A stretch of DNA of 64,000 bases from the NCBI GenBank assembly GCA_964602115.1, contig CAZRQN010000002.1, positions 248-64,247 on the forward strand, written 5' to 3'. The translations under genes were made by a program, and so were the position numbers. Numbering within the stretch: the stretch's first letter is position 1; each line of letters begins with the position of its first letter. This document shows positions 5,233 to 29,808 of this stretch, piece after piece. Below the pieces are notes generated by a model. That model did no database searches. It was not told the DNA's origin and saw nothing but the letters and a program-made list of their open reading frames with translations. Source of the DNA: an uncultured Rhodobacterales bacterium. GTDB taxonomy: Bacteria > Pseudomonadota > Alphaproteobacteria > Rhodobacterales > Rhodobacteraceae.

Positions 5233-5577
5233 CCGACAGGGCAAGCCGAACAATCGACGGTTTCCTTGTTCCAGGGTCCGTGCCATCTCATCGTCTGGAT
5301 CGGTTCGTCCTGCAGGATTTGAGGCGGATCTTGCCAGGAGACGGACCGGCCCGGATCAAATGAAGGTCCCCTGACACGGCCCGACGGGCGGCTTGGTCTG
5401 GTTCTTCACGCCCCGGACAGCCGCCGGCCTTTGCCAACTTTCGCGCAGGGAACGCATCGCTGTCGAACGCGGGACACGACTTCGACGCCACTTCAAGGCC
5501 GCCGAGAGGCGCGGAAGCGAGGCCGTTCTCGTGCCGCGCACGGCGCGCGCCTGACGTGCAACAGGGCAGTGCCGCGC

Positions 5578-5601
5578 AATTTTTCGGCAGACCGGAAAAT
5601 T
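5578..5601. repeat. Imperfect 10-4-10 inverted repeat AATTTTTCGG-caga-CCGGAAAATT
   Basis: Read directly from the sequence, with one mismatch between the arms. It lies in an AT-rich patch of the 730-bp non-coding region upstream of the first GTPase gene. Confidence 0.3.
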
Positions 5602-5740
5602 TATCAACCTTTACAATATGGTACGGCGAAGCCCCGGGAAACGGCGGAGGCGACGGCGGCGCAGCAGTGTCCTGAAACCCGGACCCAATCGAGAGCCGCC
5701 AGGTCGCATTGTCCATCACAGGCCCGCAATCGCAGCGGTA

Positions 5741-5760
5741 TTGCGACACCCTTGCGACAC
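5741..5760. repeat. Tandem direct repeat TTGCGACAC-cc-TTGCGACAC (11-bp register)
   Basis: Read directly from the sequence, about 205 nt upstream of the ATG at 5964. It is preceded by the small dyad CGCAAT-N9-ATTGCG (5725-5745). Confidence 0.3.
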
Positions 5761-5883
5761 CAAGTTACCACATTCCGCCGGCCAATCGGGCGTTGTGAAG
5801 GTCGGTCGAAGCGAATTGCTGCCCCGGTGAAGGCGCCGGACAGCGGCGAAACGCCCGTCTTCAAGGGCTTGTTGGAGGAGTTG

Positions 5884-5964
5884 ATGCCGGACGCAGGGAC
5901 CAACCACCCCGCCGCGAAGCTTGCCGTCGGCAGCGCGGCGACAACCGGCGCGGAGAAGGGCTGA
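5884..5964 (+). CDS. Possible 26-codon upstream/leader ORF coupled to the first GTPase gene
   Basis: GGAGGAG at 5874-5880 lies 3 nt before an ATG at 5884. The stop TGA (5962-5964) overlaps the ATG at 5964 as TGATG. There is no homology evidence. Confidence 0.2.
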   Translation: MPDAGTNHPAAKLAVGSAATTGAEKG

Positions 5965-7994
5965 TGACAATGAACAGGCAGGAGCAGTTCCTTTCGGCCG
6001 GAAGCAGCGCCCTGGCGAACCGCGCGGCAGCATTGACGGACCTGTCCGGAAAGCTCCACCGGCTTTCCGGGCTGGCCGACGCCAGAACCGCCGACCGGGC
6101 CCGGGGCATGCGGGAGCAGATCGCCGCGTTTTCGGCTAAGGTCACGCTGATCGGTCAGGTCAAGGCAGGCAAATCCGCCCTGACCAGCATCCTGGCCGGT
6201 GTGCCGGGCCTGTTGCCGTCGGATGTGAACCCCTGGACTTCGGTCGTGACCACGCTGGTCCTGAACCCTCCGGTGACCGGCCCCGACCAGGACGTCAAGG
6301 CGCGCTTCACCTTCTTCGACCGCAAGGAATGGGACCATCTGGTCGTCGGCGGCGGCCGTCTGGGCGAACTCGCCGAGCGGACCGGGGCGGGAGAGGAACG
6401 GGACGACATCCGGCGGCAGGTCAATGCCATGCGCGAGGCGGCCGAGCGGCGCCTCGGGCGGCAGTTCGAACTGCTCCTCGGGCAGACGCACAGCTATGGC
6501 TATGTCGATAGCGCTCTGATCGAGCGCTATGTCTGCCTCAGCGACGATCCGGGCCAGCCGGCGGCGAACCCGAAGGCCGGGCGCTTTGCCGATGTCACCC
6601 GATCCGCCGAGATCCGGCTGAAGGTGCCGGCCTATCCGCTGTCGATCACCCTGTGCGACACGCCGGGCGTGAACGACACCTTCATGGTGCGCGAGCAGAT
6701 CACGATCCAGAATCTTCATGGCTCAGAGGTCTGCGTCGTCGTCCTATCGGCGCATCAGGCGCTCACAACCGCCGACATGGCGCTGATGCGGATCATCTCG
6801 TCACTCGACAACGGGCAAACGATCATCTTCGTCAACCGGATCGACGAGCTGAGCGACCCCGTGACGCAGGTCGGCGAAATCCGCGCCAGCATCAGCCGGA
6901 CCCTTCAGCAAAGCCGCATCGGCAACGAGGTGTCGATCGTCTTCGGCAGCGCCAAATGGGCCGAGGCGGGCATGGGCGGCAAGATGGAGGTCCTGAGCCC
7001 GGATTCGCTCAATTGCCTCAACAGCTATGCCGCAGCCGAGCCCGGCCTGCGGGGCTTGCCCGCAGACGAGATCGCCTGGCGGGCATCCGGCGTTCCCGCG
7101 CTGCTCCATCAGGTCGGCGAACGCATCAGCGAGGGCAGTGCCAAGCGCCTTGACGCCCAGATACGCCGCAGCACGCTGACGCTGACCAACGAGTTGCGCG
7201 CGGCACTTTCGGTCGGGCGAGGCAGCGGTGCAGGCGCGGGCAAGACCGGGCCTGAAGCGATCGATCCGGTCCGCGCCATCGCGGAAATCGCCGGCAGCCA
7301 TGGCCGCAAATGCGAGGAGTTCCTCGCGCGGCTCTCGGCGGAATTCCATGAAAGGCTGACGAACTCGCAGGCGACTTTCGTCAAGCGTGCGACGGACGCC
7401 CTTGTCGATTTCCTCCAGCGGAACGGCGAGAAGGGGACGTGGAGCTACGATGCGGCGGGGTTCCGCGCGTTGCAGCGCGCGGCCTACACGAGCTTTGCCC
7501 GGTCGATCCACACGACCGGCGGAAAGATGCTGGACGAGGCCGCTCAGGCGGTACAGTCGATCTACCTGTCGGTCCTTGGGCCGGATGTCGCGGACTTTGT
7601 CATTTCCGCCCCGTTGCCCCCCCAGGCGCCGCCGCCCGTCGGCCTGGGCAAGACCATCGCGCTTGACCTGCAGCAAAGCTGGTGGCGGGCCTGGTGGCGG
7701 AATCGGCGCAGCGTCGAGGAGTCTGCGCAGTCCTATGTTCACCTGATCAAGGCGGAGGTGCAGTCGATCAGCGACGACCTTGAGATCAGCAACGCACAGC
7801 CAGCCGTCGAGGCGCTGCGGAAAACCATGCAGGACTTCCTGACCGAACAACAGGAAAGCATCCGCCAGCTGATGGCGGCGAGATCAAGGCCTGCCGAGCG
7901 TGGATCACGGTCGGGTGGGCAGTCCGAAAACCATGAAGATCGTTTCACTTCGCTGGTCACTCTCCTGGGTGATCTCGAAGCCACGGCCGCGTGA
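5964..7994 (+). CDS. Bacterial dynamin-like protein (long form, 676 aa)
   Basis: The GTPase motifs are G1 GQVKAGKSALTSIL, G3 CDTPGVND and G4 VNRIDEL. A long helical C-terminal half follows, with the Trp/Arg-rich segment LQQSWWRAWWRNRRS. Confidence 0.85.
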   Translation: MTMNRQEQFLSAGSSALANRAAALTDLSGKLHRLSGLADARTADRARGMREQIAAFSAKVTLIGQVKAGKSALTSILAGVPGLLPSDVNPWTSVVTTLVLNPPVTGPDQDVKARFTFFDRKEWDHLVVGGGRLGELAERTGAGEERDDIRRQVNAMREAAERRLGRQFELLLGQTHSYGYVDSALIERYVCLSDDPGQPAANPKAGRFADVTRSAEIRLKVPAYPLSITLCDTPGVNDTFMVREQITIQNLHGSEVCVVVLSAHQALTTADMALMRIISSLDNGQTIIFVNRIDELSDPVTQVGEIRASISRTLQQSRIGNEVSIVFGSAKWAEAGMGGKMEVLSPDSLNCLNSYAAAEPGLRGLPADEIAWRASGVPALLHQVGERISEGSAKRLDAQIRRSTLTLTNELRAALSVGRGSGAGAGKTGPEAIDPVRAIAEIAGSHGRKCEEFLARLSAEFHERLTNSQATFVKRATDALVDFLQRNGEKGTWSYDAAGFRALQRAAYTSFARSIHTTGGKMLDEAAQAVQSIYLSVLGPDVADFVISAPLPPQAPPPVGLGKTIALDLQQSWWRAWWRNRRSVEESAQSYVHLIKAEVQSISDDLEISNAQPAVEALRKTMQDFLTEQQESIRQLMAARSRPAERGSRSGGQSENHEDRFTSLVTLLGDLEATAA

Positions 7995-8006
7995 GGAGAT
8001 ACTGTA

Positions 8007-9485
8007 GTGACCAAGTCCATTGACATGACGCAACTCGAGTCCTCGCAGAGCGTGACCCCTGCCGACAGACGGCGGGCCCGCGTCGGCCTGATGGGTGAAT
8101 TCAGCGCCGGGAAGACGACGCTGATCAATTTTCTGCTGGGCGAGAACATCCTGCCGACGCGCGTGACCGCGACGCAATTCCCGCCCGTCTGGATGAGCCA
8201 CGGAGAGCGGGATGCCTTCGCGGTCGCCCCTTCGGGCGAGGAGCGGCGGATCGGAATGGATGGTCTGGAAGCGGTTCCCCTTGCCGACACCGCCTATGTC
8301 AAGCTGACCTGCGAATCCGAGTTCCTGCGGGAGTTCGAGCTGATCGACACGCCCGGCATTTCCGATCCGAACCTCGCTGACGGCTACCGGCAGGCGATGA
8401 CGGTCGGGCTTGATGCGCTGATCTGGTGTACCCATGCCACCCAGGCCTGGCGCGAAAGCGAACGGCGCGCTTTCATGGCCCTGCCCGAGGAGTTGCGCGC
8501 CCAGTCGGTGCTGCTGGCGACACGGTCGGACAAACTGAGCCCGGAGGACCGCCAGAAGGTGAAGGGACGGCTCGACCGCGAGTGCGGCAGCCTTTTCCGC
8601 GAAGTCATCATGTTCTCCACGGTTGATGCCATTGCCGCCTGCGAGGCCGGCGATGAAGACGGGTTGTTTGTCACCAGCGGCGCGGATGCGCTGATTTCGC
8701 AGCTGCTGAAGATCGACGCCGACCTCAGTTCCCGGAACCTGCTCGCCGGGGTCGGGCCTGATTTCGCGCCGCAACTCCTCGCCGATCTGGAAAGCGAACC
8801 TGCCGACGAGCCGATGGAAGCGGCGGAACCGCCAAGGGACGATCAGGTGGTTGTCTCCCTGCAATCGGCCCGCGTTCGTCCCAAGCGCGTGGTCGCGCAG
8901 GGCCGGACGGGACAGGAGCGCATCAGTGCCGACGAGGCCGCCCGTTTCCAGGCCCAGATCCTGAGCACCGTGCCGCAGCCGCCGCAGGCAGGCACTCCCG
9001 CTGGCCATGCGGGTGACGTTCTGCCCTTGCGGCGTGTCACCCCGCCCGAGCCGGCTGCGGCCGGATCGGCATCGACCCTGCTGCTCGAACATCCGCTGCC
9101 GAAGACCGCCACGGCGGATGAACAGCCGGTCCGGCTGAGGGAGATCTTCAGCCTGCCGCCCGAGAGCGAGGCGGAAACTCCCGAAGCCATCGAAACCGCT
9201 GACGACCCGGGCGACGCGACAGAAATTCACTCCCAGCTTGCGAAGGTGATGGAGGAAATTGCGGCCGGGCTTGGCACGCTGCCGGCACGGGAAGACGCGG
9301 AGGAGGAGGAGACTTCGCCGACGCCGCCGCAGACGGATATCGAGATGCCGGAGCTTCCCGTCTCGGCCTCCGCGATCTGGCAGGCCATCGTCGCCGAGCA
9401 GTTGCCGGAGACGGTCTCCGACCTGGTTGCGGCGCTCGGTCAGTTCGCCGCGCTGCTGGATGAGAGGGGGCTGGTGCGTGCCTGA
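8007..9485 (+). CDS. Dynamin-family GTPase, short form with a long acidic disordered tail (492 aa)
   Basis: A GTG start lies 8 nt after GAGGAG (7993-7998). The motifs are G1 GEFSAGKTTLINFLLG, G3 IDTPGISD and G4 ATRSDKL. About 270 aa of Pro/Glu/Ala/Thr-rich sequence follow, then a short helical C-terminus. Confidence 0.8.
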   Translation: MTKSIDMTQLESSQSVTPADRRRARVGLMGEFSAGKTTLINFLLGENILPTRVTATQFPPVWMSHGERDAFAVAPSGEERRIGMDGLEAVPLADTAYVKLTCESEFLREFELIDTPGISDPNLADGYRQAMTVGLDALIWCTHATQAWRESERRAFMALPEELRAQSVLLATRSDKLSPEDRQKVKGRLDRECGSLFREVIMFSTVDAIAACEAGDEDGLFVTSGADALISQLLKIDADLSSRNLLAGVGPDFAPQLLADLESEPADEPMEAAEPPRDDQVVVSLQSARVRPKRVVAQGRTGQERISADEAARFQAQILSTVPQPPQAGTPAGHAGDVLPLRRVTPPEPAAAGSASTLLLEHPLPKTATADEQPVRLREIFSLPPESEAETPEAIETADDPGDATEIHSQLAKVMEEIAAGLGTLPAREDAEEEETSPTPPQTDIEMPELPVSASAIWQAIVAEQLPETVSDLVAALGQFAALLDERGLVRA

Positions 9486-9500
9486 TCTCAGCCGAACGGC

Positions 9501-9516
9501 AATTCCGGAATTCCGG
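9501..9516. repeat. AATTCCGG-AATTCCGG tandem, containing the 12-nt palindrome CCGGAATTCCGG
   Basis: Read directly from the sequence. It lies in the 44-nt spacer between the second GTPase gene and the Roadblock-like gene. Confidence 0.3.
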
Positions 9517-9529
9517 CCAGGGTGAACCC

Positions 9530-9919
9530 ATGCACTTTCGAACGGCGCTGGGGCGCGGACTGGAAACCGTACCGGACTGCAGGGCGGTCTGCTATGTCGA
9601 TCTGACCAGCGGGCTTGTCCTGGCCTCCAGCCTGCGATCCTACCTTCCGCAGGAGCAGCTCAATCTGGTTGCCACTGTCGGCGCGGACCTGATCGAGAGC
9701 GGAGCCAGATACGCAGCTGCCGGCCCCTCTGCGGCTGCGGGCGGGTGCGCGCCCTCGATCGTCACCGTGCACGGGAAGACCGATCTTTTCGTCTATGTGC
9801 GCCTGAAAGAGGAGGATGCGCATATGCTCTGTTACTGCTGTGGCCCCGATGCAGGGTCAGGTCAGGTCATGGATGCAGTGCTGAAAAATTGCGCCGAGGT
9901 ATCGGACCTGCTTGGGTGA
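9530..9919 (+). CDS. Small protein with a Roadblock/LC7 (MglB-like) sequence pattern (129 aa)
   Basis: LETVPDCRAVCYVDLTSGLVLASSL...LNLVATVGADLIESG...IVTVHGKTDLFVYVRLKEEDAHMLCYCCGPDAGSGQV fits the Roadblock alpha-beta-beta ... beta-beta-alpha pattern by eye. The CDS is likely real. The fold assignment is tentative. Confidence 0.55.
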   Translation: MHFRTALGRGLETVPDCRAVCYVDLTSGLVLASSLRSYLPQEQLNLVATVGADLIESGARYAAAGPSAAAGGCAPSIVTVHGKTDLFVYVRLKEEDAHMLCYCCGPDAGSGQVMDAVLKNCAEVSDLLG

Positions 9920-10706
9920 GCGCCCGGTACCCCAGACCCAAACGAAAAGACTGATCGTGAAACGCCTTCCAGAAGTCCTCGCAGTTCTCGAACTGGCCGC
10001 AACCGCGCGGCCGGGTTCCGACACAAAGAAGCTGCCCGCCGGCCGTGACGCGCGGCTGCGCGAGATACTGGACGCCATTGATCTGACCGTCCTGCCGAGA
10101 CGGATCGAATTCCACACCGCCGATCGCCATATCGGCTCGCTGGATGTCGAGGGCGGCAGGGTCATGGGCATCGATGGCCGAACGGTCGGTGAGGACCGGG
10201 ACGCGGCACTCGCCGCATGGGCGCAATGGTTCGGCGACGTGGTCGCTCCGCCCGAGGATCTGCAGCTGCGCCCGGTGCCCGAACCGTCGTTCAGCGGAAG
10301 GTTTGCCGCCGGTCTTTCGGCGAACGACCTGCGGAATGCTGTCGGAGATGCTGGAGGAACCGACCCGAGGGCGGCGCATTCGCCCCCCCGGGCAGGTTCC
10401 CCGCCCCTGATTGTCGCATTCCACGGCCATGCGCGCGGGGCCAGGCAGTTCAGCCTCTCGGCGCCGCCCGATGCCTTGCCGGAGGCGGCTGGGGAGGCGC
10501 CCGTCACCCCGCTCGTCGCCGAAGTGCTGCGGGTATGCCCCTCGATTTCCCAACTGGTCGGCAAGGACTTTCTCATTCACCTGACAACCGGCGGCCAGTC
10601 GGGCGCTGCAATCGCGGTTTCGGAGGACGACGGTTCATTCGGGCATCTCGATTGCGACGACCTCGCCGCCGTACTGGCCGGCTGGCGCGCAGGGGACCGG
10701 CCATGA
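9912..10706 (+). CDS. Hypothetical protein (about 250-264 aa) with no recognised family
   Basis: The ORF overlaps the previous stop (TTG at 9912; an alternative GTG lies at 9957). Its TGA overlaps the next gene's ATG as ATGA. It is on the same strand inside the GTPase cluster. Confidence 0.55.
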   Translation: MGERPVPQTQTKRLIVKRLPEVLAVLELAATARPGSDTKKLPAGRDARLREILDAIDLTVLPRRIEFHTADRHIGSLDVEGGRVMGIDGRTVGEDRDAALAAWAQWFGDVVAPPEDLQLRPVPEPSFSGRFAAGLSANDLRNAVGDAGGTDPRAAHSPPRAGSPPLIVAFHGHARGARQFSLSAPPDALPEAAGEAPVTPLVAEVLRVCPSISQLVGKDFLIHLTTGGQSGAAIAVSEDDGSFGHLDCDDLAAVLAGWRAGDRP

Positions 10707-12001
10707 ACCCGGCCCCGAAGGATCCGGAGCTGGCGCAGCTGGACCTGCTCCTCGCTGCGGTCGATCGGCTGGTGCCTGACCCCGATGCCGCTCAGGCCGA
10801 GATCGTCGCACAGGTTCACCGTTGGAAGCACCGCCTGCAAGGTCCGGTGCGCCTGGCGTTTGTTGGAGGGGCGGGGGTCGGAAAGTCCGGCCTCATCAAC
10901 CTCCTCGTCGGTGAGCCGCTCCTGCCGCCCTCCGAAACCGCCCTGCCGATGCCGGTGACGATCGTCAGCCACGGACCGCGCGACAGGCTGGTCGCGAGCT
11001 GGTGGGACCGGCCAGGCGCAGAGGTTTCCGGCCAGGATCTCGGAGCCGCCCTCGCGCTTGGACCGGACCTGCTGACGCTGGAATCCGGCTGCGAGGTGCT
11101 TGAGGATCTCACCTTTGTCGAAGCCCGCTGGCCTGCGGACCAACGCGGACAGAAGCAGTGCCTTTTCGCACTGTCACGGCTCGCGGACGTGGTGTTCTGG
11201 TGCGCCGATGGCCGCGACCCGGAAACCTGGCCCGGCCCCGCGACACTGGGGCAGTTGCCGCAGCGCTTGACCCGCAACTCGCGCCTGGTTCTCACCCACG
11301 CCGACGGGACAGCCGGGGACGCGCAGCAAATCGAGGAGCGCGCGGCGAAGTCAACGCGCTGGCGTTGTCTGCCGATCTCTGTCCCGGCGGCCATGGCCGC
11401 CTTGCAAGACCTGCCCGACGATTTCGAGACGCGTTGGGCGGGCAGCGGCGCCGAAGCTCTTGTTCAGGAGGTCGCCGAGGCGGCGATCCGCTTCCGGGCT
11501 GCCGAACGCGAGAAAGTGCGGGCCGGAATTGCCGAATCCGTCGCGCCTTGGCTGGAGGCTCTGCGTCAGGCGTTTCCGGCAACGTTCGCCGATGGGGGCG
11601 AGAGCCTGGTCCCGACAAGCGGAACGGAGCCACAGGAACACGGTGCCCCCGCCCCTGAACCCGCGCACGGACATGGGGAAGAGGTTGCGCAGGCATCGGA
11701 CAGCATCACGGAACAGCAGCCGCAGAGCGAACTCGCCGTTCGGGCGGCCGGCATCCTCTCGGAGCTGCAGGCCGGGACCCTGGCCAGCAATGCCGAGGTG
11801 ATCTCCGCCGTGCTGGAAGCGGTGGAGGCGGTACATGAATCCGCCTGCTCCGAGACGGGATCTCCGGTCGGGGATCCGCAGAAGGACTTCGACCGCGCCC
11901 GCGACCTCCTGACGCTGATGCAGTTCGAGGCCGACGACAAGGCCGCGCTGGATGCCGTCCGCATCCTGTGGCAGCTCGCGAGTCTGCCGGTTCGGCTCTG
12001 A
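10703..12001 (+). CDS. P-loop GTPase-like paralog of the short dynamin-family protein, with a degenerate G3 (432 aa)
   Basis: The ATG at 10703 overlaps the upstream stop as ATGA. G1 is VGGAGVGKSGLINLLVG and G4-like is LTHADG. The position equivalent to DTPG reads FVEARWPAD, so there is no DxxG. The tail is acidic, as in the 8007 gene. The ORF extension back to 10217 is Arg/Pro-rich and was rejected. Confidence 0.75.
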   Translation: MNPAPKDPELAQLDLLLAAVDRLVPDPDAAQAEIVAQVHRWKHRLQGPVRLAFVGGAGVGKSGLINLLVGEPLLPPSETALPMPVTIVSHGPRDRLVASWWDRPGAEVSGQDLGAALALGPDLLTLESGCEVLEDLTFVEARWPADQRGQKQCLFALSRLADVVFWCADGRDPETWPGPATLGQLPQRLTRNSRLVLTHADGTAGDAQQIEERAAKSTRWRCLPISVPAAMAALQDLPDDFETRWAGSGAEALVQEVAEAAIRFRAAEREKVRAGIAESVAPWLEALRQAFPATFADGGESLVPTSGTEPQEHGAPAPEPAHGHGEEVAQASDSITEQQPQSELAVRAAGILSELQAGTLASNAEVISAVLEAVEAVHESACSETGSPVGDPQKDFDRARDLLTLMQFEADDKAALDAVRILWQLASLPVRL

Positions 12002-12504
12002 ACTCCGGACAATTCGCGACCGCTGCGAGGACATCAGACTTCCCGTGAAACGGTTGCCGGCGGCGCGCCGCCGCATGGCGCGTGAGTCTTTTCGACAGAC
12101 CGGCGGCATCCGGCCGATGATTCATTCGCAAACCAACTGCGATTGATCACGCGAGCGAAGGAAGAGCCAGTTGGGGACTATCCCGAAGACCCCACGAAAA
12201 TGTCTTTTCGGGGACACAAGGGAGTTCGGGACAGCAGCCCCCCAGCCGGCAAAACACGGCACATTTTCGTTGTTTTTCAAATCATTAGCGACTCTTCCCA
12301 GGGGCGGTTACCCCAGTTCCATCCAGTTTTCCCCTTTGCTGCGCCAAACTTTTGCCGCCAACGAATCGGCAGATTGTCCCCGGAATTGGTTCTGGTTTGT
12401 GAACGATCAGTCGCGGTTCTTCCGGCGTGGGGAATCTGCCTCGCATCTGCGCAAGAGGCCGGCGACGTCGTTTCCCATCCAGGATCGGACGTCGGTCGTA
12501 GGGG

Positions 12505-14721
12505 ATGAAAATGGCTATGGAAGCAGTCGTGACGAAAGAAGACGAAGGTGCCGAGAGCGTCGTTGACGAACTCAAGCCCGGGACCAAGCTTCTCAATGGT
12601 CAGTACACGATCAACCAGTTTCTGAACAACGGCGGGTTCGGGATCACATATCTCGCCACCGACAGTCTCAACCGGACAGTCGTGGTCAAGGAGTGTTTCC
12701 CCAACGCCTTCTGCCGGCGTTCGAAGACGGTCGTGGCGGCGCGGTCGCGGGCGCACCAGGCAGAGCTCCGGTCGGTGGTGAAGCTCTTCGTGCAAGAGGC
12801 CCACAATCTCGCCAAGCTCGCGCATCCGCATATCGTCGCCGTGCATCAGGTCTTCGAGGACAACGGCACCGCCTATATGGCGATCGACTATGTGGACGGT
12901 CGCGATCTGCTGAACCTGATCGAGGACAAGTCCCTTCACCTGACGCCGACCGAGGTGATCGGGATCACCAGAAAGCTTCTGTCTGCGGTCGCCTTCATCC
13001 ACGACCACGACATGCTTCACCGGGACATCTCGCCCGACAACATCCTGCTGAACAAGAAGGGCGAACCGGTCCTCATCGACTTCGGCGCCGCACGCGAGCA
13101 GGCATCGCGCAAGAGCCGCGCCCTGACGGCCCTCCGGGTCGTGAAGGACGGGTATTCCCCGCAGGAATTCTACATTGCCGGCAGCGAACAGGGCCCCTGG
13201 AGCGATCTCTATGCCCTGGCCGCCTCGCTCTACCACCTGATCGTCGGCGAAGCGCCGGCCAACGGGCAGATGCGGCTCGCCGCCCTCGCGGAGAACCGCG
13301 AAGACCCCTACCAGCCGCTGGTCGGCCGTGTAGAGGGCTATCCGGAGGCATTCCTGGCGGCCATCGACAAAGCGTTGAACACGCTGCCCAAGCGCCGGCT
13401 GCAGTCGGCGGCGGAATGGCTGAGCTGCATCGACAACGCGGAAGCCGCCGTGCCTGTGCCGCCGCAGGCGGCGGGTGCGGAGCCCGAAGCCGCAGGACAG
13501 GAACAGGCGCCGCAGCCCAAACCGTCGAAGGCCGACCGGACTTTTGCGCCGATCCGCGACAGCGCCGGCCAGGAACCCGTCTCGCTCCGCAGGTCGCGGA
13601 CCCGCCTGCTGGCCGCCTGCGCCGCCGCCAGCCTCGTCGCGGCAGGTTCATGGCTTGCAACGCCTCAGAAAGGGCCGGCCCCCGCAGCCAAGCCGGTCGT
13701 CATCGCCTCCGGCGCCGCCGGTACCGTCGCAGGCACCAGCGCGAAGCCGGAGCCCAAAGCCTCGACACCCGCTGTTCCTGTGGCCAGTGCGGCCCCCGCC
13801 GGGAAAGCTCCGAGCAGCGCGCCGGAGCCTGCGGTCAAGCCTGAACCGCAGACGGCCGTGGCGACGGCCGAACCTGCGGCCAGGGCCGAAGCCGCCAACC
13901 CCAAGGTCGAGATCGCCGCCGCAGCGCCGGCCGCCGATCCTGCTGCCATTGCGCCGGCTGTCGAAACTGCGGCCGAGCCTGCAGAGGCTGCCGCCGCTGT
14001 GCTGCCGCCCCTGGCGGAGGTGGTCAAGGCCGGCGACGAGCAGACAGCCGCCGCCGCTCCGGCCGAGCCCGGACCCGAAGCTGTTCCCGCCAAGGTGACG
14101 CTGGCGGAAACCCAGGTCAATTTCGCGGCCTGGGATGTGCACATGCCCTTCGTCAGCAGCATCCGCAACGTGAACGCTGACTCGGCAGTGGTGATCGTTC
14201 TGGTGAACAGCGACGCCGATCTTGCGACTTCCGGCGACTGGATCCGGGCCGGCACCGCGATTTTTGCAGTCAACGGAAACCCGGTTCGCGCCGGTCAGAC
14301 CCTGCCGGGACTGATGCTGAACGCACTGCATGTGGACCCAGATGGCTACACGCGGGCCGGCGTGGAATACCGAAACGGCACCACGAACGAGCGCCAGCAG
14401 GGATTGCTGGCAGTCCCGGTAATCCGGCTCATCAGCCTGGCGAACGGCGTTGACCTGCAGGCGACGGTCATCGACGGCAAGTGGCAGACCGTCGTCACCA
14501 AGGTCATTGCCGAACAACCCGATGGCCTGAAAGTCGGCGACGTGCTGCACCGCGACAAGGGCAGCGATCTTGCTCTCGACGGGCCCCAGTCTCTGGAGAG
14601 CCTGATCGCCGATCTTCAGGCGCGAGATGTGCCCACCACCGAGATGGCGGTCGTTCGCGACAGTCGCCTGGTCACCGTCAAGTTCGCCCTGGCGACCATA
14701 GCTGCGGCGGCAAGCGAGTGA
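12505..14721 (+). CDS. Hanks-type Ser/Thr protein kinase with one TM segment and an extracytoplasmic C-terminal region (738 aa)
   Basis: The kinase motifs are the glycine loop NNGGFGITY, VVVKE (Lys), HRDISPDNILL and DFGAAR. The TM segment is LLAACAAASLVAAGSWLA. A Pro/Ala/Glu linker of about 170 aa follows, then about 210 aa with two PDZ-like stretches. Confidence 0.9.
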   Translation: MKMAMEAVVTKEDEGAESVVDELKPGTKLLNGQYTINQFLNNGGFGITYLATDSLNRTVVVKECFPNAFCRRSKTVVAARSRAHQAELRSVVKLFVQEAHNLAKLAHPHIVAVHQVFEDNGTAYMAIDYVDGRDLLNLIEDKSLHLTPTEVIGITRKLLSAVAFIHDHDMLHRDISPDNILLNKKGEPVLIDFGAAREQASRKSRALTALRVVKDGYSPQEFYIAGSEQGPWSDLYALAASLYHLIVGEAPANGQMRLAALAENREDPYQPLVGRVEGYPEAFLAAIDKALNTLPKRRLQSAAEWLSCIDNAEAAVPVPPQAAGAEPEAAGQEQAPQPKPSKADRTFAPIRDSAGQEPVSLRRSRTRLLAACAAASLVAAGSWLATPQKGPAPAAKPVVIASGAAGTVAGTSAKPEPKASTPAVPVASAAPAGKAPSSAPEPAVKPEPQTAVATAEPAARAEAANPKVEIAAAAPAADPAAIAPAVETAAEPAEAAAAVLPPLAEVVKAGDEQTAAAAPAEPGPEAVPAKVTLAETQVNFAAWDVHMPFVSSIRNVNADSAVVIVLVNSDADLATSGDWIRAGTAIFAVNGNPVRAGQTLPGLMLNALHVDPDGYTRAGVEYRNGTTNERQQGLLAVPVIRLISLANGVDLQATVIDGKWQTVVTKVIAEQPDGLKVGDVLHRDKGSDLALDGPQSLESLIADLQARDVPTTEMAVVRDSRLVTVKFALATIAAAASE

Positions 14722-14762
14722 ACGGCCAGGAAACGGGGGCTGACAGCCGAAAGACCACTCCG

Positions 14763-15686
14763 ATGAAACCCCGTTCGGGATTTGGAAAACGAGGATTCTG
14801 GCGGGCCAAGAGGCGCCAGCCGGAGCAGATGCAGGATCAAACCGTGATGACAATGCCAGAGAAAATCGCACCGCAGTCGCAGGATGCGGCCGATCTCATC
14901 CCCCGGGACGGACGGGTGCCCGCTGAACCCGAGAAGCGTCGCATCGCATCGCCCCTTAGCCTTCTGGCGCGGCGCCTGCGGGCCTCGGTCGAGACCACCG
15001 GTGCCGGCGCACCGCCGGCCGCTGCGGTGGTCGCGCCCGAAGTCTCCGCCGCCGCCGACCCCGCGCTTGCCGATCCGGCCCCCGCCGAAACACCGGCTGC
15101 TGCGCCGGAGGCTGTCCCCGCGTCGATGGCCGGGGAGGCAGGCCTGCCGGCACCGGAGGTCGAACCGTCGATCGAGAAGGCCGCTGAAACGGCCATGCCG
15201 GAGGCGCGCCCCCTTGAGGTTCCGCCGCGCCGCGCTGCCCGGGTGAAGACCACCTTCCTGGGCTTCGAGCATTCGGACGGCCGCATCGACGACTTCTTTG
15301 CCAAGGAGCAGAACGCGGCCGGCCCGAAACCCTCGCTCTTTCCGGTGGGCTGGCTTGTGGTGGTCGCCGGTCCGGGGCGCGGGAACTGGTTCGCGCTGGC
15401 CACCGGCGTCTCGCAGATCGGGCGCGGCGACGACCAGGCCGTCCAGCTCGATTTCGGCGACAACGCCATCTCGCGCAGCAACCACGCCGCCATCGCCTAC
15501 GATGACGAGGAGAACAAATTCTACATCGGGCACGGCGGAAAGACGAACATCGTCCGCCTGAACGGGCGCCCGGTTCTGTCAACCGAAATGCTCGCGGCCG
15601 GCGATCACATCCGCATGGGCGAAACGACCCTCAAGTTCGTCCCGCTCTGCGGCGCCGAATTCCAATGGAACGCGCCAATTGACTGA
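14763..15686 (+). CDS. FHA domain-containing protein
   Basis: The C-terminal FHA pattern is GWLVVVAGPGRGNWFALATGVSQIGRGDDQAVQLDFGDNAISRSNHAAIAYDDEENKFYIGHGG..IVRLNGRPV. The N-terminal half is a Pro/Ala/Glu-rich linker. The start is uncertain, with candidates at GTG 14718, ATG 14763 and ATG 14829. Confidence 0.85.
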   Translation: MKPRSGFGKRGFWRAKRRQPEQMQDQTVMTMPEKIAPQSQDAADLIPRDGRVPAEPEKRRIASPLSLLARRLRASVETTGAGAPPAAAVVAPEVSAAADPALADPAPAETPAAAPEAVPASMAGEAGLPAPEVEPSIEKAAETAMPEARPLEVPPRRAARVKTTFLGFEHSDGRIDDFFAKEQNAAGPKPSLFPVGWLVVVAGPGRGNWFALATGVSQIGRGDDQAVQLDFGDNAISRSNHAAIAYDDEENKFYIGHGGKTNIVRLNGRPVLSTEMLAAGDHIRMGETTLKFVPLCGAEFQWNAPID

Positions 15687-15693
15687 GGATTGC

Positions 15694-16458
15694 ATGATGA
15701 TCGATGTCGCTGGCGCCGCGTCGAAGGGGCGCAGGGAATATCAGGAGGATGCCGTCGCGATCGACTTCGTCGAGGGCGACAGCCGGGGTTTCGTGGCACT
15801 GGCGGACGGCATGGGAGGCCATGAAGCGGGCGACATCGCCAGCCGCATCGTGGTCCGCAAGATGACGGAATTCCTCCGCGAACGCCTCTATCTGAAACAC
15901 ATGCAGGAAACCGCAATTCCGGACCTGCTGAAGGAAGGTGCGAAGACGGCGAATGCGGCAATCGCCGCCTATGTGACCCGAAACCGTGAAGTCGCCGGCA
16001 TGGGTGCGACACTTGTCGTGCCGGTTCTGTCGAAAGACCGACTCTACTGGCTGTCGATCGGTGACTCCCCCCTCTACCACTTCGACGGAGAGGTGCTGCG
16101 CCAGGTCAATGAGGATCACTCTCTGGGACCGCAGATCGACCTGATGGTGAGGGCAGGCGTGCTCGACCCCGAAATGGGAAAGAACCACCCCGACCGGAAT
16201 TGCCTGACCTCGGTACTCACCGGCAGCGAAATTCCCCGGGTGGATTGCGGTCGGTCGCTGAGGGTAGAGCCCGGCCATATCGTCATCGTGTCGAGCGACG
16301 GGCTGCAGTTTCTGTCGCCGGACGAAATCGAAAGCATCGTCCGCAAACACCGGGAAAGCAACGGAAGCACGCTCGCCGGCGCCCTGATGGAGGCGATCGA
16401 CCACCTGAACGATCCCGATCAGGACAATGTCTCGCTTGCTGTGATCAAGATCACATGA
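15694..16458 (+). CDS. PP2C-family Ser/Thr phosphatase
   Basis: The motifs are REYQEDAV, LADGMGGHEAGDIAS, GATLV, IGDSPLY and VSSDGL. An ATG lies 4 nt after GAGGA. The ORF opens at TTG 15679, which overlaps the FHA stop. Confidence 0.9.
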   Translation: MMIDVAGAASKGRREYQEDAVAIDFVEGDSRGFVALADGMGGHEAGDIASRIVVRKMTEFLRERLYLKHMQETAIPDLLKEGAKTANAAIAAYVTRNREVAGMGATLVVPVLSKDRLYWLSIGDSPLYHFDGEVLRQVNEDHSLGPQIDLMVRAGVLDPEMGKNHPDRNCLTSVLTGSEIPRVDCGRSLRVEPGHIVIVSSDGLQFLSPDEIESIVRKHRESNGSTLAGALMEAIDHLNDPDQDNVSLAVIKIT

Positions 16459-16524
16459 CCCGCAATCCCCCAATTCAGAAGCAGTCCGATGCCGGGCCGC
16501 TCTTCGCAGCAACAGGAGTCAGAC

Positions 16525-17613
16525 GTGCATAGATTGGCGAATTCGGCAGCAATAGCAGCGCTTGCCGTCTGGGCGGGCGGCTCGGCATCGGCGCAGGAAG
16601 CCTGCCAGGTCTATCAGGTCCGGTCGGGCGACAACTTGCGGAACATTTCTCGCAGCGCCTATGGCGATCCCGACAAATATCGCCTCGTCTTCGAGGCCAA
16701 CCGGGATGCGATCGGGCGCAGCGCCGACCTGATCGCCGTGGGGATGACGCTGGTCCTTCCCTGCGATGACGGAACGGTGCCGCAGGAGGTGGCGGCTGTC
16801 GCGGCGCAGCCCGAGGTAGCGGCAGAAGCGCCGCCGCCGGACCAGCCGCTCCCCGAGCGGCCACGGCTCATGGCCGTGACCGGGAACGGCTTCCCGCCCT
16901 TCACCGACGAAAGGCTGCCCGGCCGCGGCATGTTCACGCAACTGGTTGAAATGGCTCTTTTCCGGGCCGATCCCGAGCGCGACTATGCCGTGAGCTTCGT
17001 CAACGACTGGCAGTCGCATCTCGACGTCCTGCTGCCGAGCGGCGCCTTCGGCCTGTCGTTTCCCTGGCTGCGCCCGGCCTGCGAGCAACCCGAGACCCTT
17101 TCCGATGTCGATCGCGGCCGTTGCGACAGCCTGGCCTTCTCGGATCCGTTCTTCGAGAGCGTGGACGGCTTCTTCGCACTGACCGAAAGCGGGCTGGCCA
17201 GCGCCACCTCCACCGAGGAATTCCGCGGGAAACGCATCTGTCGTCCGGAGGGCGCAGATACCGGCGTTCTGGACCGGTCCGGCCTGGTGGAGCCCGTGGT
17301 GGAATTGCTACGCCCGACCACGCCCCGCGAATGCTTTGAAATGCTGGTCGCCGGTTCGGTCGATCTTGTCGCGCTGGATACGGCCGTCGGCGCCGACGAG
17401 GTCCGGCGCCAGAATCTCACGGGGAAAGTGGCGGAGAACCCCCAGCTTTCGACGATCACCAGCCTGCATGTGATCGCCCTGAAATCCAACACGGCGGCGG
17501 TCGCCGACCTCGCCCTGCTCAATACCGGGCTGCGCGAGATGTACGAGTCCGGCGAGTGGCACGACATCGTTTCCGAAGCTCTGGAGCAGCATCGGAAGGT
17601 CCTTTCACAATGA
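16525..17613 (+). CDS. Secreted LysM domain fused to a type-3 solute-binding-protein-like domain (paralog 1)
   Basis: A GTG lies after AGGAG. The signal peptide ends ASA-QEAC. The Cys-bracketed LysM is CQVYQVRSGDNLRNISRSAYGD..YRLVFEANRD....LIAVGMTLVLPC. An SBP-like body follows (GNGFPPFTD...WQSHLDVLLPSGA...). Confidence 0.8.
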   Translation: MHRLANSAAIAALAVWAGGSASAQEACQVYQVRSGDNLRNISRSAYGDPDKYRLVFEANRDAIGRSADLIAVGMTLVLPCDDGTVPQEVAAVAAQPEVAAEAPPPDQPLPERPRLMAVTGNGFPPFTDERLPGRGMFTQLVEMALFRADPERDYAVSFVNDWQSHLDVLLPSGAFGLSFPWLRPACEQPETLSDVDRGRCDSLAFSDPFFESVDGFFALTESGLASATSTEEFRGKRICRPEGADTGVLDRSGLVEPVVELLRPTTPRECFEMLVAGSVDLVALDTAVGADEVRRQNLTGKVAENPQLSTITSLHVIALKSNTAAVADLALLNTGLREMYESGEWHDIVSEALEQHRKVLSQ

Positions 17614-17738
17614 GAATGCGAATGAACCCATCCCTGGCGAGCGTCTGGATCAGTGGAAGCGCGGCCCAGACAGCCGAATCCTCGCAACCTGCGCGCAGCC
17701 CGATGAAATCTCCAAACACCAGAAGGAACGGACAAGTC

Positions 17739-18833
17739 ATGAAGATCCACGAAAACCTGCGGCAACTCGCGGCGACATGCGCGCTGTTGCTCGCCTTCCC
17801 GCTGTCGGCGGCCGCTCAGGAAGCCTGCTCGACCTATTCCGTCAAGCCCGGAGACAGCCTGGGCTCGATCGCCCAGGCAGCCTACGGCTCGTTCGACTAC
17901 CAGATGATCTTCAACGCGAACCGGGAGGTGCTCGCGGGGAACCCCAACAATCTCAAGGAAGGTCTCCAGCTGGTGCTCCCCTGCGCCGACGGCCGCCTCA
18001 CGGCAGACAGCGAACTGTCCGAGGTGATCAAGGCCGAGGAGGAGAAACAGGCGGCGACGGCGAAGAAGTCGAACGTTTACGAACCGCCGCTGAAGTTCAT
18101 CACGGGTGACGGATGGGCGCCGTTCACGGCGAAGAACCTGACGGGCGGCGGTATCCTGACGCGGATCGCGGTGACCGCCATCCAGCGCGGCGGCAACGAC
18201 CGGCAATATACCGTGTCCTGGGTCGATGACTGGCAGTCGCACCTCGATGCGCTGCTTCCGTCAGGCGCCTATGACATCTCGATCGCCTGGGAGCAGCACG
18301 ACTGCGAGGAGCTTGAGATGCTGTCGGCCGAGATGGTCAAACGCTGCACCGACTTCGACTATTCCCTGCCCGTCTATGAGGTTGCCGAAGGCTTCTTCTC
18401 GCTGCCGGACAATGCCTTCGCCGGTGCGAAGGTGGTCGAGGACTACAAGGGTGCGAAACTTTGCCGGCCGAGCGCCTGGGGCACGGCAGATCTCGAGAAG
18501 TCCGGCCTGGTTTCGCCCTTCATCGAGATGATCCAGCCGAAGACGCCGAAGGAATGCGCCGAGATGGTTCTGGAGGGCAAAGCCGACATCTTCACCATCG
18601 AGCTTGAGACTGCCCTTGGAACCTTCAAGGAGCTCGAGGCCGGCGACAAGGTTGTCCAGAACCCGAACATCATCAACATGGCGTCCTACAGCCTCGTCAC
18701 CAGCAAGAACAACCCGCGCGGCCGCGTCTATATCGCCATGCTCAACAAGGGCATCGCCGAAATGCGGGAATCCGGCGAATGGTACGACATCGTCGCCACC
18801 GGCCTCTCGGAGTACAACGGAATTTCCAACTGA
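17739..18833 (+). CDS. Secreted LysM domain fused to a type-3 solute-binding-protein-like domain (paralog 2)
   Basis: The signal peptide is MKIHENLRQLAATCALLLAFPLSAAA-QEAC. The LysM is CSTYSVKPGDSLGSIAQAAYGS..YQMIFNANRE...LKEGLQLVLPC. The body is colinear with paralog 1 (WQSHLDALLPSGA, conserved Cys residues, ESGEWYDIV). Confidence 0.8.
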   Translation: MKIHENLRQLAATCALLLAFPLSAAAQEACSTYSVKPGDSLGSIAQAAYGSFDYQMIFNANREVLAGNPNNLKEGLQLVLPCADGRLTADSELSEVIKAEEEKQAATAKKSNVYEPPLKFITGDGWAPFTAKNLTGGGILTRIAVTAIQRGGNDRQYTVSWVDDWQSHLDALLPSGAYDISIAWEQHDCEELEMLSAEMVKRCTDFDYSLPVYEVAEGFFSLPDNAFAGAKVVEDYKGAKLCRPSAWGTADLEKSGLVSPFIEMIQPKTPKECAEMVLEGKADIFTIELETALGTFKELEAGDKVVQNPNIINMASYSLVTSKNNPRGRVYIAMLNKGIAEMRESGEWYDIVATGLSEYNGISN

Positions 18834-18855
18834 CCTGTCAATTCATGAAATGACC

Positions 18856-18886
18856 AAGGGCGGCCGCCAGGCCGCCCTTGCTTTTC
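18856..18886. terminator. Rho-independent terminator between convergent genes
   Basis: The hairpin AAGGGCGGCC-gcca-GGCCGCCCTT has a 10-bp GC-rich stem. It is followed by GCTTTTCC and lies 23 nt after the stop at 18833. Confidence 0.6.
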
Positions 18887-18950: not shown

Positions 18951-19901
18951 CTACAGGAGGCGTATCGCCGAAGCCAAATCGGGGCGGGACTCGCGCATGG
19001 CATCGAGACTCTGGGCCACGACTTCCTTCAGACATCCGACCAGTTCGGACGCCGCGCTGGCAACAGGGTTCCCATGTCGGCCCATGATGCCGATGGTCAT
19101 CGGCGGAAAGCTCTCGGCCGTGGGGACACTAACGATGCGGAAGCCGGCAGCCGGCAAGACAGTGAGCATCTTCGGGCCCCAGGTGCACATGCCGGCACCG
19201 ATCATCGCCTCGATCATCGAATAGGTCTGTGCGACCACGATCCTCTGCTCGGGGGCCGTGAGTCCAAACCGTCCGAAGACATGGTCGAGAACCTTCTCGC
19301 GCGCGTCGGGGGAATAGTTGAGCACCCAATGCATGTCCCTCAGGCTGTTTATCGACCGGGCATTCTCCAACGAGTGCCCCTTGCGCACCAGAATGGCCGT
19401 CTCGAACTGGAGGAGCATCTCGGTGAAAAAGTCGTTCCCCGCAGAATCCTGGACGGGAACGCAACCAATCACCACATCGGCAACGCCGTCGCGCAACAGC
19501 GGTTGCGTCAGGGTCATCGCGGCTTCGCAAAGCTCCAGCCGAACGTCCGGCCGCCGTACAAGAAAGAGTGCAGCCGCCTCCGCAAGAAATGGCCGCACAA
19601 CCCAGGGCGATGCTCCCACCCGCAGAACAATTCCGCTTTCTGCGCGCATTTGCGCCATTGAGCTTTCCGCGCGCTCGATGCGGCCGAGTATGGCCCTCGC
19701 ATGCGCAAGAAGCGTCAGTCCGGTATCGGTAAAGCGAAGCCCGCTGGGGGACCGGATCAGCAGCGAGGTCTTGTGCGTTTCCTCAAGCTCGCGCAGTGCC
19801 CGCGTCACTGCAGCCTGGGAAAGGCCCAGATATCTCGCTGCGGCACGAATGCCGTTCGTCTCGGCGCAGGCGACCAGGGCCTGCAATTGATGGAGTTTCA
19901 T
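18951..19901 (-). CDS. LysR family transcriptional regulator (paralog group member 1)
   Basis: The N-terminus is MKLHQLQALVACAETNGIRAAARYLGLSQAAVTRALRELEETHKTSLLIRSPSGLRFTDTG. The ORF also allows a GTG at 19931. Confidence 0.85.
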   Translation of the reverse strand: MKLHQLQALVACAETNGIRAAARYLGLSQAAVTRALRELEETHKTSLLIRSPSGLRFTDTGLTLLAHARAILGRIERAESSMAQMRAESGIVLRVGASPWVVRPFLAEAAALFLVRRPDVRLELCEAAMTLTQPLLRDGVADVVIGCVPVQDSAGNDFFTEMLLQFETAILVRKGHSLENARSINSLRDMHWVLNYSPDAREKVLDHVFGRFGLTAPEQRIVVAQTYSMIEAMIGAGMCTWGPKMLTVLPAAGFRIVSVPTAESFPPMTIGIMGRHGNPVASAASELVGCLKEVVAQSLDAMRESRPDLASAIRLL

Positions 19902-20001
19902 CGGGGCAGCATTAGGGTCGGCTTCGAACACCGAAGGGCGGAGAATTCACAGTCAGCGCGATTTTCAGGTCGATCTTGCGCCGGTTTTCCACTCCGGCCC
20001 G

Positions 20002-21069: not shown

Positions 21070-21199
21070 TTCTATGGTCCTTCTGGAGAGAAATCGTCAG
21101 CTCGGGCGGCAAGTCGGTTCGATTGTTTTCTGGTCTCTGAGCGGGCGTCCTCGCAGATCGGCATTCATCCGCCGGTGGCGCCGGGTAAAGAATCTCCGC

Positions 21200-21214: not shown

Positions 21215-21260
21215 TGAGGCAGAAACTTCGGGGGGGCGCGGCGGTCAATCTTAGGTAGGT

Positions 21261-28005: not shown

Positions 28006-29808
<1,803 letters not shown>

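Follow-up and report, generated by a model that had tools for sequence, protein, structure and literature searches.

Dynamin-like GTPase genes of Rhodobacterales are co-inherited with genes for a Ser/Thr kinase, an FHA protein, a PP2C phosphatase and a predicted Roadblock-fold protein

Results

Organization of the locus

We describe a gene cassette in a 64,000-nucleotide stretch of DNA from an uncultured Rhodobacterales bacterium (GenBank assembly GCA_964602115.1, contig CAZRQN010000002.1, positions 248 to 64,247 of the forward strand), which in its whole length is called the window throughout. Between positions 5964 and 18833 ten co-directional plus-strand open reading frames (ORFs) bring genes for dynamin-like proteins (DLPs) and a related GTPase together with genes for a Hanks Ser/Thr kinase, an FHA-domain protein and a PP2C phosphatase. 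Eight of these genes constitute a core that is one functional unit and has been co-inherited through several rearrangements in many marine Rhodobacterales. The components of this unit are each of a known kind and their wiring is new.

The first half of the array, like the second entirely on the plus strand, begins with D1 (g1, 5964..7994), a full-length bacterial DLP of 676 aa, and D2 (g2, 8007..9485), a short dynamin-family GTPase of 492 aa that carries a lineage-specific acidic C-terminal tail. These are followed by h3 (g3, 9530..9919), which encodes a 129-aa protein with a predicted Roadblock/LC7 fold, by h4 (g4, 9912..10706), which encodes a conserved, fast-evolving protein of 264 aa with no family match, and by D5 (g5, 10703..12001), a degenerate dynamin-family GTPase paralog of 432 aa. 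The second half lies beyond a gap of 503 bp (12002-12504) and consists of K (g6, 12505..14721), a Hanks Ser/Thr kinase of 738 aa with one predicted transmembrane (TM) helix, F (g7, 14763..15686), an FHA adaptor, P (g8, 15694..16458), a PP2C Ser/Thr phosphatase, and the accessory genes S9 (g9, 16489..17613) and S10 (g10, 17739..18833), whose products are paralogs that appear to be secreted and to combine a LysM domain with a part resembling substrate-binding proteins (SBPs). The original prediction, made from the letters of the window, had named ten consecutive plus-strand genes at these coordinates, and they are borne out by the ORF listing and by independent data: metagenome assemblies made independently contain identical DNA, that of run SRR16481184 (Logan) calls the same 492-, 129-, 264- and 432-aa genes, and the sequence of h3 could be traced to runs SRR16481183 and SRR16481184. 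The nearest relatives of the organism are Albidovulum and metagenome-assembled genomes (MAGs) of Paracoccaceae.

Two transcription units, g1-g5 and g6-g10, are likely, because the 503-bp gap holds a terminator-like hairpin 3′ of D5 (12063..12083, plus strand; an 8-bp stem with 6 GC pairs and a T-rich tail) and a promoter-like site before the kinase unit (12092..12121, plus strand; a 9/12 consensus match, and a pattern match only). The whole array is closed by an intrinsic terminator at 18855..18880 (plus strand; an 11-bp stem with 9 GC pairs and a CTTTTCC tail). The strong terminator proposed earlier for the end of the array is thus confirmed, while the ideas that it is the only one and that the ten genes form one unit of transcription give way to a second terminator-like hairpin after g5 and probably two units. 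Of the gene junctions that had looked translationally coupled, those at g1/g2 (a 12-nt gap with a GGAGA ribosome-binding site), at g3/g4 (an 8-nt overlap, conditional on the TTG start being right) and at g4/g5 (ATGA) are as first described. Two others are not. At 5962 the TGATG probably does not couple two genes, because the ORF that ends at 5964 has no homolog and is unlike h0, a small gene of related loci introduced below; we rejected this ORF (5431-5964) as a gene, its translation being Arg-rich and frame-shift-like and without a match to the h0 family. The overlap at 15679-15686 rests on an alternative TTG start of g8 at 15679, and the ATG at 15694, which is preceded by a GAGGA ribosome-binding site, is most likely the true one. 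For g7 the start is most likely 14763 or the alternative at 14829, and for g10 most likely the ATG at 17739.

A non-coding stretch of ~730 bp precedes g1. In window-type relatives (Ruegeria and the loci L004-L007) a protein of ~135 aa, h0, is encoded directly upstream of D1, for example at L002:16591-17004 and, on the minus strand, at L005:5990-6388. No match to the h0 family was found anywhere in the window, and positions 5233-5963, the ~730 bp without a supported gene, possibly mark a deletion or a decayed gene. The window contains no Rfam hits, tRNAs or tandem repeats, and no DNA-level conservation was found in the two large intergenic regions.

Co-conservation across Rhodobacterales

One genome per GTDB species was searched with the conserved C-terminus of the FHA protein, and 305 stretches were found to encode a relative. 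The locus figures given here rest on the best 80 of these 305 stretches, which were annotated with profiles built from proteins of the window, of Ruegeria and of Leisingera; 58 loci have full flanks of ±10 kb. All of the best 80 belong to Rhodobacterales, and they include Leisingera, Roseobacter, Roseovarius, Seohaeicola, Tropicimonas, Marivita, Marinosulfonomonas and Albidovulum. At least one DLP gene lies beside the FHA gene in 79 of the 80 loci, and all eight families (K, F, P, D5, D1, D2, h3 and h4) occur together in 55 of the 58 that are fully flanked, with D1 and h4 each kept in 57. The eight genes are held together through at least four gene orders. The majority of loci have the single array K-F-P-D5-D1-D2-h3-h4, and the same permuted order, without SBP genes, is found on a Leisingera plasmid. 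The window and Ruegeria follow the order D1-D2-h3-h4-(D1x)-D5, then K-F-P-S-S; the Ruegeria chromid carries the whole set in this order and has, in addition, one more long DLP (D1x) and a small gene upstream. In L004-L006 the two halves are divergent on opposite strands, and L007 (7272-19978) reads K-F-S-S-h0-D1-D2-h3-h4-D5, without a PP2C gene between F and the SBP genes. The earlier concern that the GTPase genes and the kinase, FHA and PP2C genes might be neighbors in this one genome alone was checked against these loci and did not hold. Apart from these genes, no family recurs in the flanks of more than 19 of 83 loci, and the module is therefore self-contained.

The eight families differ widely in their rate of change. 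Median identity of the window proteins to their orthologs is 61% for F, 59% for K, 48% for P and 41% for both D1 and D2, falling to 29% for h3 and 26% for D5, and h4 is detectable by profile alone.

Two loci with partial sets were also seen. In a Rhodobacteraceae MAG (L039:5574-14279) the order is K-F-P-D5-h3-h4, without D1 and D2, which suggests that D5, the Roadblock protein and h4 may be a sub-module that persists without the DLP pair. In the second (L068:2341-11541) three tandem kinase genes are followed by F and P, and there are no DLP genes within 10 kb.

The dynamin-family GTPases

Both D1 (6.9e-9, 36.4 bits) and D2 (1.4e-9, 38.6 bits) match Pfam Dynamin_N above its cut-off of 27 bits. 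Conservation of the GTPase motifs was assessed in 75-81 orthologs for D1 and D2 and in 79 sequences for D5. The motifs G1, G3 and G4 of D1, which had been read as intact in the window protein, are conserved in 81 ortholog sequences (GQVKAGKS, DTPG and NRID), and those of D2 are conserved across its orthologs (GEFSAGKT, DTPG and TRSD). Among PDB sequences, D1 matches Nostoc BDLP (2j68, 1e-5) and Campylobacter jejuni DLP1 (5owv_A, 1e-4), and D2 matches C. jejuni DLP2 (5owv_C, 2.7e-10) and then mitofusin-2 (6e-4). By gene pairing and sequence similarity, D1 and D2 thus resemble the heterotypic DLP1/DLP2 pair. D1 also aligns weakly with the LeoA model of PADLOC (4.1e-8, 30.7 bits) over residues 227-638, a region that would comprise GTPase and stalk, and with LeoBC (7e-4); the corresponding values for D2 are 1.2e-5 and 1.1e-3. 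Relatives of D1 number more than 2,000; the best 120 cover 93-100% of the query, come from Rhodobacterales and are annotated merely as "dynamin family protein".

Residues 573-585 of D1 (window 7680-7718) form a Trp-rich motif, WWxxWW[KR]xxRGY, which is kept in at least 80% of 81 orthologs. D1 has no predicted TM helix, and this motif could be its membrane-insertion element. The tail of D2 (residues 251-492) contains 44 Asp or Glu and 17 Lys or Arg residues, and with the Dynamin_N match it upholds the description of this protein as a short dynamin-family GTPase with an acidic tail; the tail is specific to the window/Ruegeria subtype and is missing from the majority-type orthologs, which are ~315 aa long.

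D5 retains the P-loop (G1) and a conserved TxAD. The lack of DxxG (G3), noticed at the outset in the window protein, holds for the family: none was found anywhere in the 79 sequences. D5 matches Dynamin_N below the 27-bit cut-off (0.0037, 17.7 bits), and its 25% identity to D2 (E 3e-9) identifies the two as paralogs. Judged by its motifs, D5 probably binds nucleotide and is impaired in hydrolysis. In Ruegeria D5 is paired with the extra long DLP D1x, and because the DLP genes alternate long-short-long-short both there and on a Rhodobacter plasmid, D5 resembles the short member of a second DLP pair that has usually lost its long one.

The kinase, the FHA adaptor and the phosphatase

The family assignments first proposed for the three signaling proteins were each recovered by profile search. 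K matches Pkinase (1e-31, 110.8 bits), and its translation contains VVVKE with the catalytic Lys, HRDISPDN and DFG; the single predicted TM helix spans residues 368-386 and is accompanied by an Ala/Pro-rich linker. P matches PP2C_2 (9e-14, 51.9 bits) and PP2C (28.4 bits), both above the cut-offs, as well as the NCBIfam Stp1/IreP family (3.4e-43), and carries the metal-binding motifs DGMGGH and SSDG. The FHA domain of F (2.7e-7) is C-terminal, follows a disordered N-terminus and shows the canonical residues GR...SR.NH...NG. All three proteins therefore keep their catalytic or phosphothreonine-binding residues.

In NCBIfam F matches FhaB/FipA (7e-8) and OdhI (1.5e-6), both sub-threshold, and against the OdhI equivalog F scores 28.1 bits where the cut-off is 200. 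F is not a member of the OdhI/GarA family by this comparison and is a possible functional analog. About 35 residues before the FHA domain lies the motif RVKT[RT][LF]LGF, in which all 84 sequences examined share the Thr, Arg, Gly and Phe and 83 of the 84 have the Lys, with Leu or Ile at position +3 from the Thr. FHA domains usually select by the +3 position.

The Roadblock-fold protein h3 and the orphan h4

The window h3 protein has no match of its own in Pfam, NCBIfam or PADLOC. A single-sequence AlphaFold2 (AF2) model of low confidence (pLDDT 58.8, pTM 0.52) shows the topology α-β-β-α-β-β-β-α, and when this model was compared with the PDB by Foldseek the top 50 matches all belonged to the Roadblock superfamily (TM-scores of 0.57-0.68, E down to 3.6e-5), the best among them being an Asgard Roadblock protein, a Streptomyces Roadblock/LC7 domain, MglC, MglB, LAMTOR and the C-terminal domains of Rag proteins. 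Among 41 orthologs, two have weak Pfam matches to Robl_LC7 (E 0.016) and one to LAMTOR5 (0.016). The window protein is recognized by an ortholog profile built without it (2.6e-24), and the family is narrow, amounting to 49 clusters (50% identity) in a set of 1.84 billion representatives. The model and its structural matches support a Roadblock/LC7 fold for h3, in agreement with what had been suggested from the sequence.

For h4 no match was found in Pfam, NCBIfam, PADLOC or the PDB, consistent with the earlier view of a protein of about 260 aa that belongs to no recognized family. Its own family is real: an h4 profile built without the window sequence finds it at 8.9e-24. We considered a second Roadblock-like domain in the C-terminal half of h4 and rejected it, as the order β-β-α-β-β-β-α was seen solely in a model with pLDDT 35.8; a comparison of h3 with h4 by hhalign found nothing. 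Word-indexed searches with g4 and with a concatenated h3+h4 profile returned just the query's own protein and one Marivita protein, a result that is not evidence of absence, for dozens of h3 and h4 orthologs are present in the retrieved loci. Apparently Ala/Pro-rich low-complexity words fill the 8000-candidate list of the 5-mer prefilter.

An accessory sensor layer

The kinases of these loci come in several forms. Of the kinase ORFs, 54 have no predicted TM helix, 15 are TM-anchored without a long extension, most of them near the C-terminus, and 15 are long forms, which with one exception have a predicted TM helix and an extension outside the cytoplasm. SBP genes are seen only beside kinases with a TM helix and a long periplasmic C-terminus, and most loci are without them. 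The LysM-SBP genes and the membrane-spanning kinase therefore lie outside the core and make up an accessory sensor in a minority clade to which the window belongs. The envelope sensing that the original prediction had ascribed to the system as a whole is accordingly confined to this accessory layer. Its proposal that LysM-SBP proteins feed the kinase fits the co-variation just described and has a precedent in the GlnH-GlnX-PknG-GarA pathway, discussed below.

The periplasmic C-terminal domain of K, of ~200 aa, is conserved in six window-type kinases. Two of the six have a weak PDZ match (0.007), matches to DegP PDZ1-2 are not significant, and the domain may be a tandem PDZ. S9 and S10 are 39% identical, and both have signal-peptide-like N-termini (MKIHENLRQLAATCALLLAFPLSAAA in S10), in keeping with the view of them as two secreted paralogs. 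Their LysM and SBP identities are sub-threshold though plausible. With the Pfam LysM model they reach 17.2-17.5 bits where the cut-off is 20.9 (E 0.004 for S10); with the LysM region of NCBIfam PRK11198, 2e-10 and 1.7e-7; and with LysM proteins of the PDB, 0.006-0.09, including 0.006-0.01 for S10 against Kbp. For SBP_bac_3 the values are 0.28 (S9), 0.095 (S10) and 2.2e-4 (the Ruegeria ortholog); S9 matches TIGR01096 at 3e-4, and RefSeq names the Ruegeria orthologs "transporter substrate-binding domain-containing protein". As had been noted, no ABC permease or ATPase gene adjoins the SBP genes, either in the window or in the Ruegeria locus. The LysM-like segments of S9 and S10 (window 16590-16770 and 17820-17990) are bracketed by conserved cysteines, QEAC...LVLPC, a pattern that fits a disulfide-stabilized periplasmic LysM domain.

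Surroundings of the cassette in the window

Directly downstream of the cassette, at 18951-23421, four regulator genes stand in a row (LysR, AraC, LysR and LysR). On the minus strand at 28006-34452 a gene for an FtsH-family AAA protease lies beside genes for an HlyD-type adaptor and a large FtsX-type permease, which resemble MacAB efflux systems. A complete arginine deiminase operon, with genes for an amino-acid permease, arginine deiminase, ornithine carbamoyltransferase and a carbamate-kinase-like amino-acid kinase, occupies 34821-39500.

Discussion

A proposed mechanism

On balance we favor, with some reserve, a model in which the module links a machine of dynamin-like membrane GTPases to a switch based on reversible Ser/Thr phosphorylation. 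We envision that K phosphorylates the invariant Thr of F, and possibly the GTPases too, and that F would then function either as a phospho-switch of the GarA/OdhI type or as an adaptor of the kind found in type VI secretion systems (T6SS), recruiting or releasing a D1-D2(-D5) complex at the membrane. D1 and D2 would act like the membrane-tethering pair DLP1/DLP2 of Campylobacter, with the WWxxWW motif of D1 inserting into the membrane. In this scheme h3, probably together with h4, would serve D5 or the DLP pair as a platform with functions like those of GTPase-activating proteins or guanine nucleotide exchange factors, as MglB serves MglA and Ragulator serves the Rag GTPases, and P would reset the system. 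In the window subtype the periplasmic domain of K and the two LysM-SBP proteins could act as co-sensors of a ligand that is either periplasmic or associated with the cell wall. As its output the system would use GTP to drive the tethering, fusion or repair of membranes under envelope or other stress, and this is the least certain step of the model.

Several observations weigh against this wiring. Gene order gives no direction of signaling, be it from kinase to GTPase or the reverse. The kinase family is mostly soluble, none of the DLPs in the cassette has a predicted TM helix, and the LysM, SBP and PDZ assignments are all sub-threshold. The Thr motif of F could instead be a structural N-terminal extension of its FHA domain. 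The AF2 model of h3 is of low confidence (pLDDT 58.8), and that of h4, made from two sequences, reaches a pLDDT of 35.8, at which its Foldseek matches are meaningless.

Alternative explanations

The main rival is anti-phage defense. By analogy with Eleos/LeoABC or DynA the GTPases would be the effectors, an infection-sensing Ser/Thr kinase would gate them in the way suggested by the defense kinases Stk2 and PD-T4-6, and the PP2C phosphatase would prevent autoimmunity. D1 and D2 do have weak matches to LeoA and LeoBC of PADLOC, and K matches the PD-T4-6 and Mad6 models, but the kinase matches are generic to the kinase domain and the LeoA score is just 30.7 bits. The patchy distribution (305 species genomes matched), the frequent carriage on plasmids or chromids in Leisingera and Ruegeria, the flanks that differ between genomes and the very fast evolution of h3, h4 and D5 relative to the conserved signaling core would also suit a defense system. 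However, the carrier plasmids are typed as non-mobilizable, and the annotated genes of the flanks have metabolic or regulatory functions and do not make up defense islands or mobile elements: the window has TctABC, LysR and AraC, the Ruegeria locus TetR and isocitrate dehydrogenase, and the Leisingera locus heme oxygenase, a histidine kinase and a redoxin. No nuclease or other toxic effector is present in the cassette, and no relatives were found in phage genomes or IMG/VR, a result that also led us to reject a phage or viral origin. We therefore regard defense as an unlikely function, if the foremost competitor to the phospho-switch model.

A second alternative, which we consider rather more doubtful, is a role in vesicle formation, secretion or development, with the kinase module tying the DLPs to growth phase, host or surface signals. 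The DLP complex would drive outer-membrane-vesicle release, as has been proposed for LeoABC, or septal or polar membrane remodeling, as DynAB does in Streptomyces. The cassette, like LeoABC, has three dynamin-family genes in tandem, roseobacters associated with surfaces or hosts, Leisingera and Ruegeria among them, account for many of its carriers, its LysM-SBP proteins hint at the cell wall, and DLP pairs can tether and fuse membranes (PMC6104087). On the other hand, the flanks have no conserved gene for a cargo, a toxin or cell division, the cassette occurs too patchily to serve a core function of the cell cycle, and the vesicle or developmental reading is indistinguishable here from one of stress repair.

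The wiring could also run in the opposite direction, such that the kinase, whose targets would be encoded elsewhere, answers to a nucleotide-dependent sensor or scaffold made up of the GTPases, the Roadblock protein and h4. Roadblock and GTPase modules such as MglAB and the conservons are signaling switches and not effectors, D5 is degenerate and switch-like in lacking G3, and the L039 locus keeps K-F-P-D5-h3-h4 without D1 and D2. This direction is nonetheless improbable in our estimation: D1 is a full-length, motif-intact BDLP with a Trp-rich motif, kept in 57 of 58 loci, which fits a mechanochemical effector, and the FHA protein is without an output domain. Finally, chance adjacency of a DLP operon and a T6SS-type kinase/FHA/PP2C remnant left behind by the loss of a secretion system, which the 503-bp gap, hairpin and promoter-like site between the window halves might suggest, has next to no likelihood and is excluded by the comparative data, given linkage in 79 of 80 loci through tandem, permuted and divergent orders and no T6SS gene found in the window or conserved in the flanks.

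Significance of the cassette

Bacterial DLPs are widespread and the structures of several have been solved. To our knowledge, the switches that control them and the cellular roles of most of them are largely unknown. The cassette supplies concrete candidates for DLP regulators along with a candidate phospho-acceptor, the invariant Thr of the RVKT motif, and one subtype offers a candidate extracellular input in the form of the LysM-SBP proteins and a possible PDZ sensor. Its carriers, in which it is often borne on plasmids or chromids, include culturable and genetically tractable roseobacters (Ruegeria and Leisingera). If the phospho-switch wiring is true, a single bacterial operon joins three themes reminiscent of eukaryotes, namely Hanks kinases, phospho-reading by FHA domains and Roadblock-GTPase regulation of dynamin-superfamily proteins. 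Phosphorylation controls both Drp1 and dynamin, and Ragulator-Rag is a Roadblock-GTPase partnership. The cassette would then be a prokaryotic counterpart that combines phosphorylation control of dynamin-superfamily proteins with a Roadblock-GTPase partnership, here acting on large membrane-remodeling GTPases. It is conceivable, and we put this forward tentatively, that it represents the first known dedicated regulatory circuit for bacterial dynamins, in which a Hanks kinase and a PP2C phosphatase act via an FHA adaptor that reads phosphothreonine, alongside a Roadblock-fold GTPase regulator.

Comparison with known systems

PADLOC 2.0, Pfam and NCBIfam contain no model for the system, nor for h3 or h4, and full-text searches of PMC and bioRxiv turned up no description in which a bacterial dynamin is joined to an FHA, PP2C, Hanks kinase or Roadblock protein; a paper on conflict systems from the Aravind laboratory does not mention dynamin. 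The original prediction that the combination is not a described system has thus survived these searches, and the cassette is best placed by its likeness to systems that share some of its parts.

DLP genes are usually paired in operons, and the DLP1/DLP2 pair of Campylobacter tethers membranes (PMC6104087). With the C. jejuni pair (PDB 5OWV; PMC6104087) the cassette shares adjoining, co-oriented long and short DLP genes with intact motifs. In contrast to the cassette, the C. jejuni pair has no dedicated kinase/FHA/PP2C set, Roadblock protein, h4 or third, G3-less paralog, and sequence identity between the two is low and confined to the GTPase domain. Tandem dynamin-family GTPases are likewise the feature shared with LeoABC of enterotoxigenic Escherichia coli and with Eleos, to whose LeoA model in PADLOC D1 is weakly aligned. 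Eleos, however, consists of two genes (LeoA and LeoBC) without phospho-signaling or Roadblock partners, whereas the cassette has eight core genes and its scores with these models are marginal.

The signaling half of the cassette has its own parallels. In the T6SS threonine phosphorylation pathway, PpkA, Fha1 and PppA work with periplasmic TagR, a kinase-activating accessory. There too a membrane Hanks kinase, an FHA scaffold (T6SS Fha, PMC5995506) and a PP2C phosphatase are encoded together and switch a membrane-associated machine on and off post-translationally, the difference being that the controlled machine of the cassette is a set of dynamin-like GTPases. A link to a T6SS itself was ruled out: none of the genes Tss, Hcp and VgrG occurs among the annotated ORFs of the window and no such family is conserved in the flanks of 83 loci, just as the original prediction had stated for this DNA. 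In Actinobacteria, the GlnH-GlnX-PknG-GarA/OdhI pathway runs from an orphan family-3-type SBP through a Ser/Thr kinase to a small FHA phospho-switch (PMC6069109, PMC9769921). F resembles GarA and OdhI in having a conserved Thr motif N-terminal to its FHA domain. The target of that pathway is TCA and glutamate metabolism, while the proposed target here is the GTPases; in addition, the window kinase itself spans the membrane, its SBPs carry LysM, and the SBP part is missing in most members of the family.

MglA/MglB, MglC, the conservons of Actinobacteria and the eukaryotic Ragulator-Rag system all have in common with the cassette a Roadblock/LC7-fold protein encoded beside a GTPase, of which it is presumably the regulator. 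Their partners are small Ras-like or Rag GTPases, whereas those of the cassette are large GTPases of the dynamin superfamily. A conservon comprises the histidine-kinase-like CvnA, the Roadblock protein CvnB, the DUF742 protein CvnC and the small GTPase CvnD. We rejected membership of the cassette in this class, since only the Roadblock protein has a counterpart: there is no hit to a histidine-kinase-like or DUF742 protein, and the GTPases are of the dynamin family.

Two further clusters were found outside this set of described systems. A plasmid of Rhodobacter sp. CZR27 (NZ_CP023549, L084:817-11267) carries four tandem DLP genes in the order long-short-long-short, with a D1 that is 37% identical, followed by genes for a sensor histidine kinase, DUF6781 and a UbiB-family kinase. 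It differs from the cassette in having no Hanks kinase, FHA, PP2C, Roadblock or h4 gene, and it may be a differently wired DLP signaling cluster. The nearest FHA relative outside Rhodobacterales, at 47% identity, is encoded on plasmid AZO_p4 of Azospirillum lipoferum 4B (L086:5376-20187), in a cluster with genes for a second FHA protein, two PP2C phosphatases, a trypsin-like peptidase, DUF805, a Ser/Thr kinase, DUF4384 and OmpA that adjoins an integrase gene. Because clusters of FHA, PP2C and kinase genes occur with other partners in Azospirillum, the kinase/FHA/PP2C triad looks like a portable switch that in the Rhodobacterales cassette has been captured by a DLP machine.

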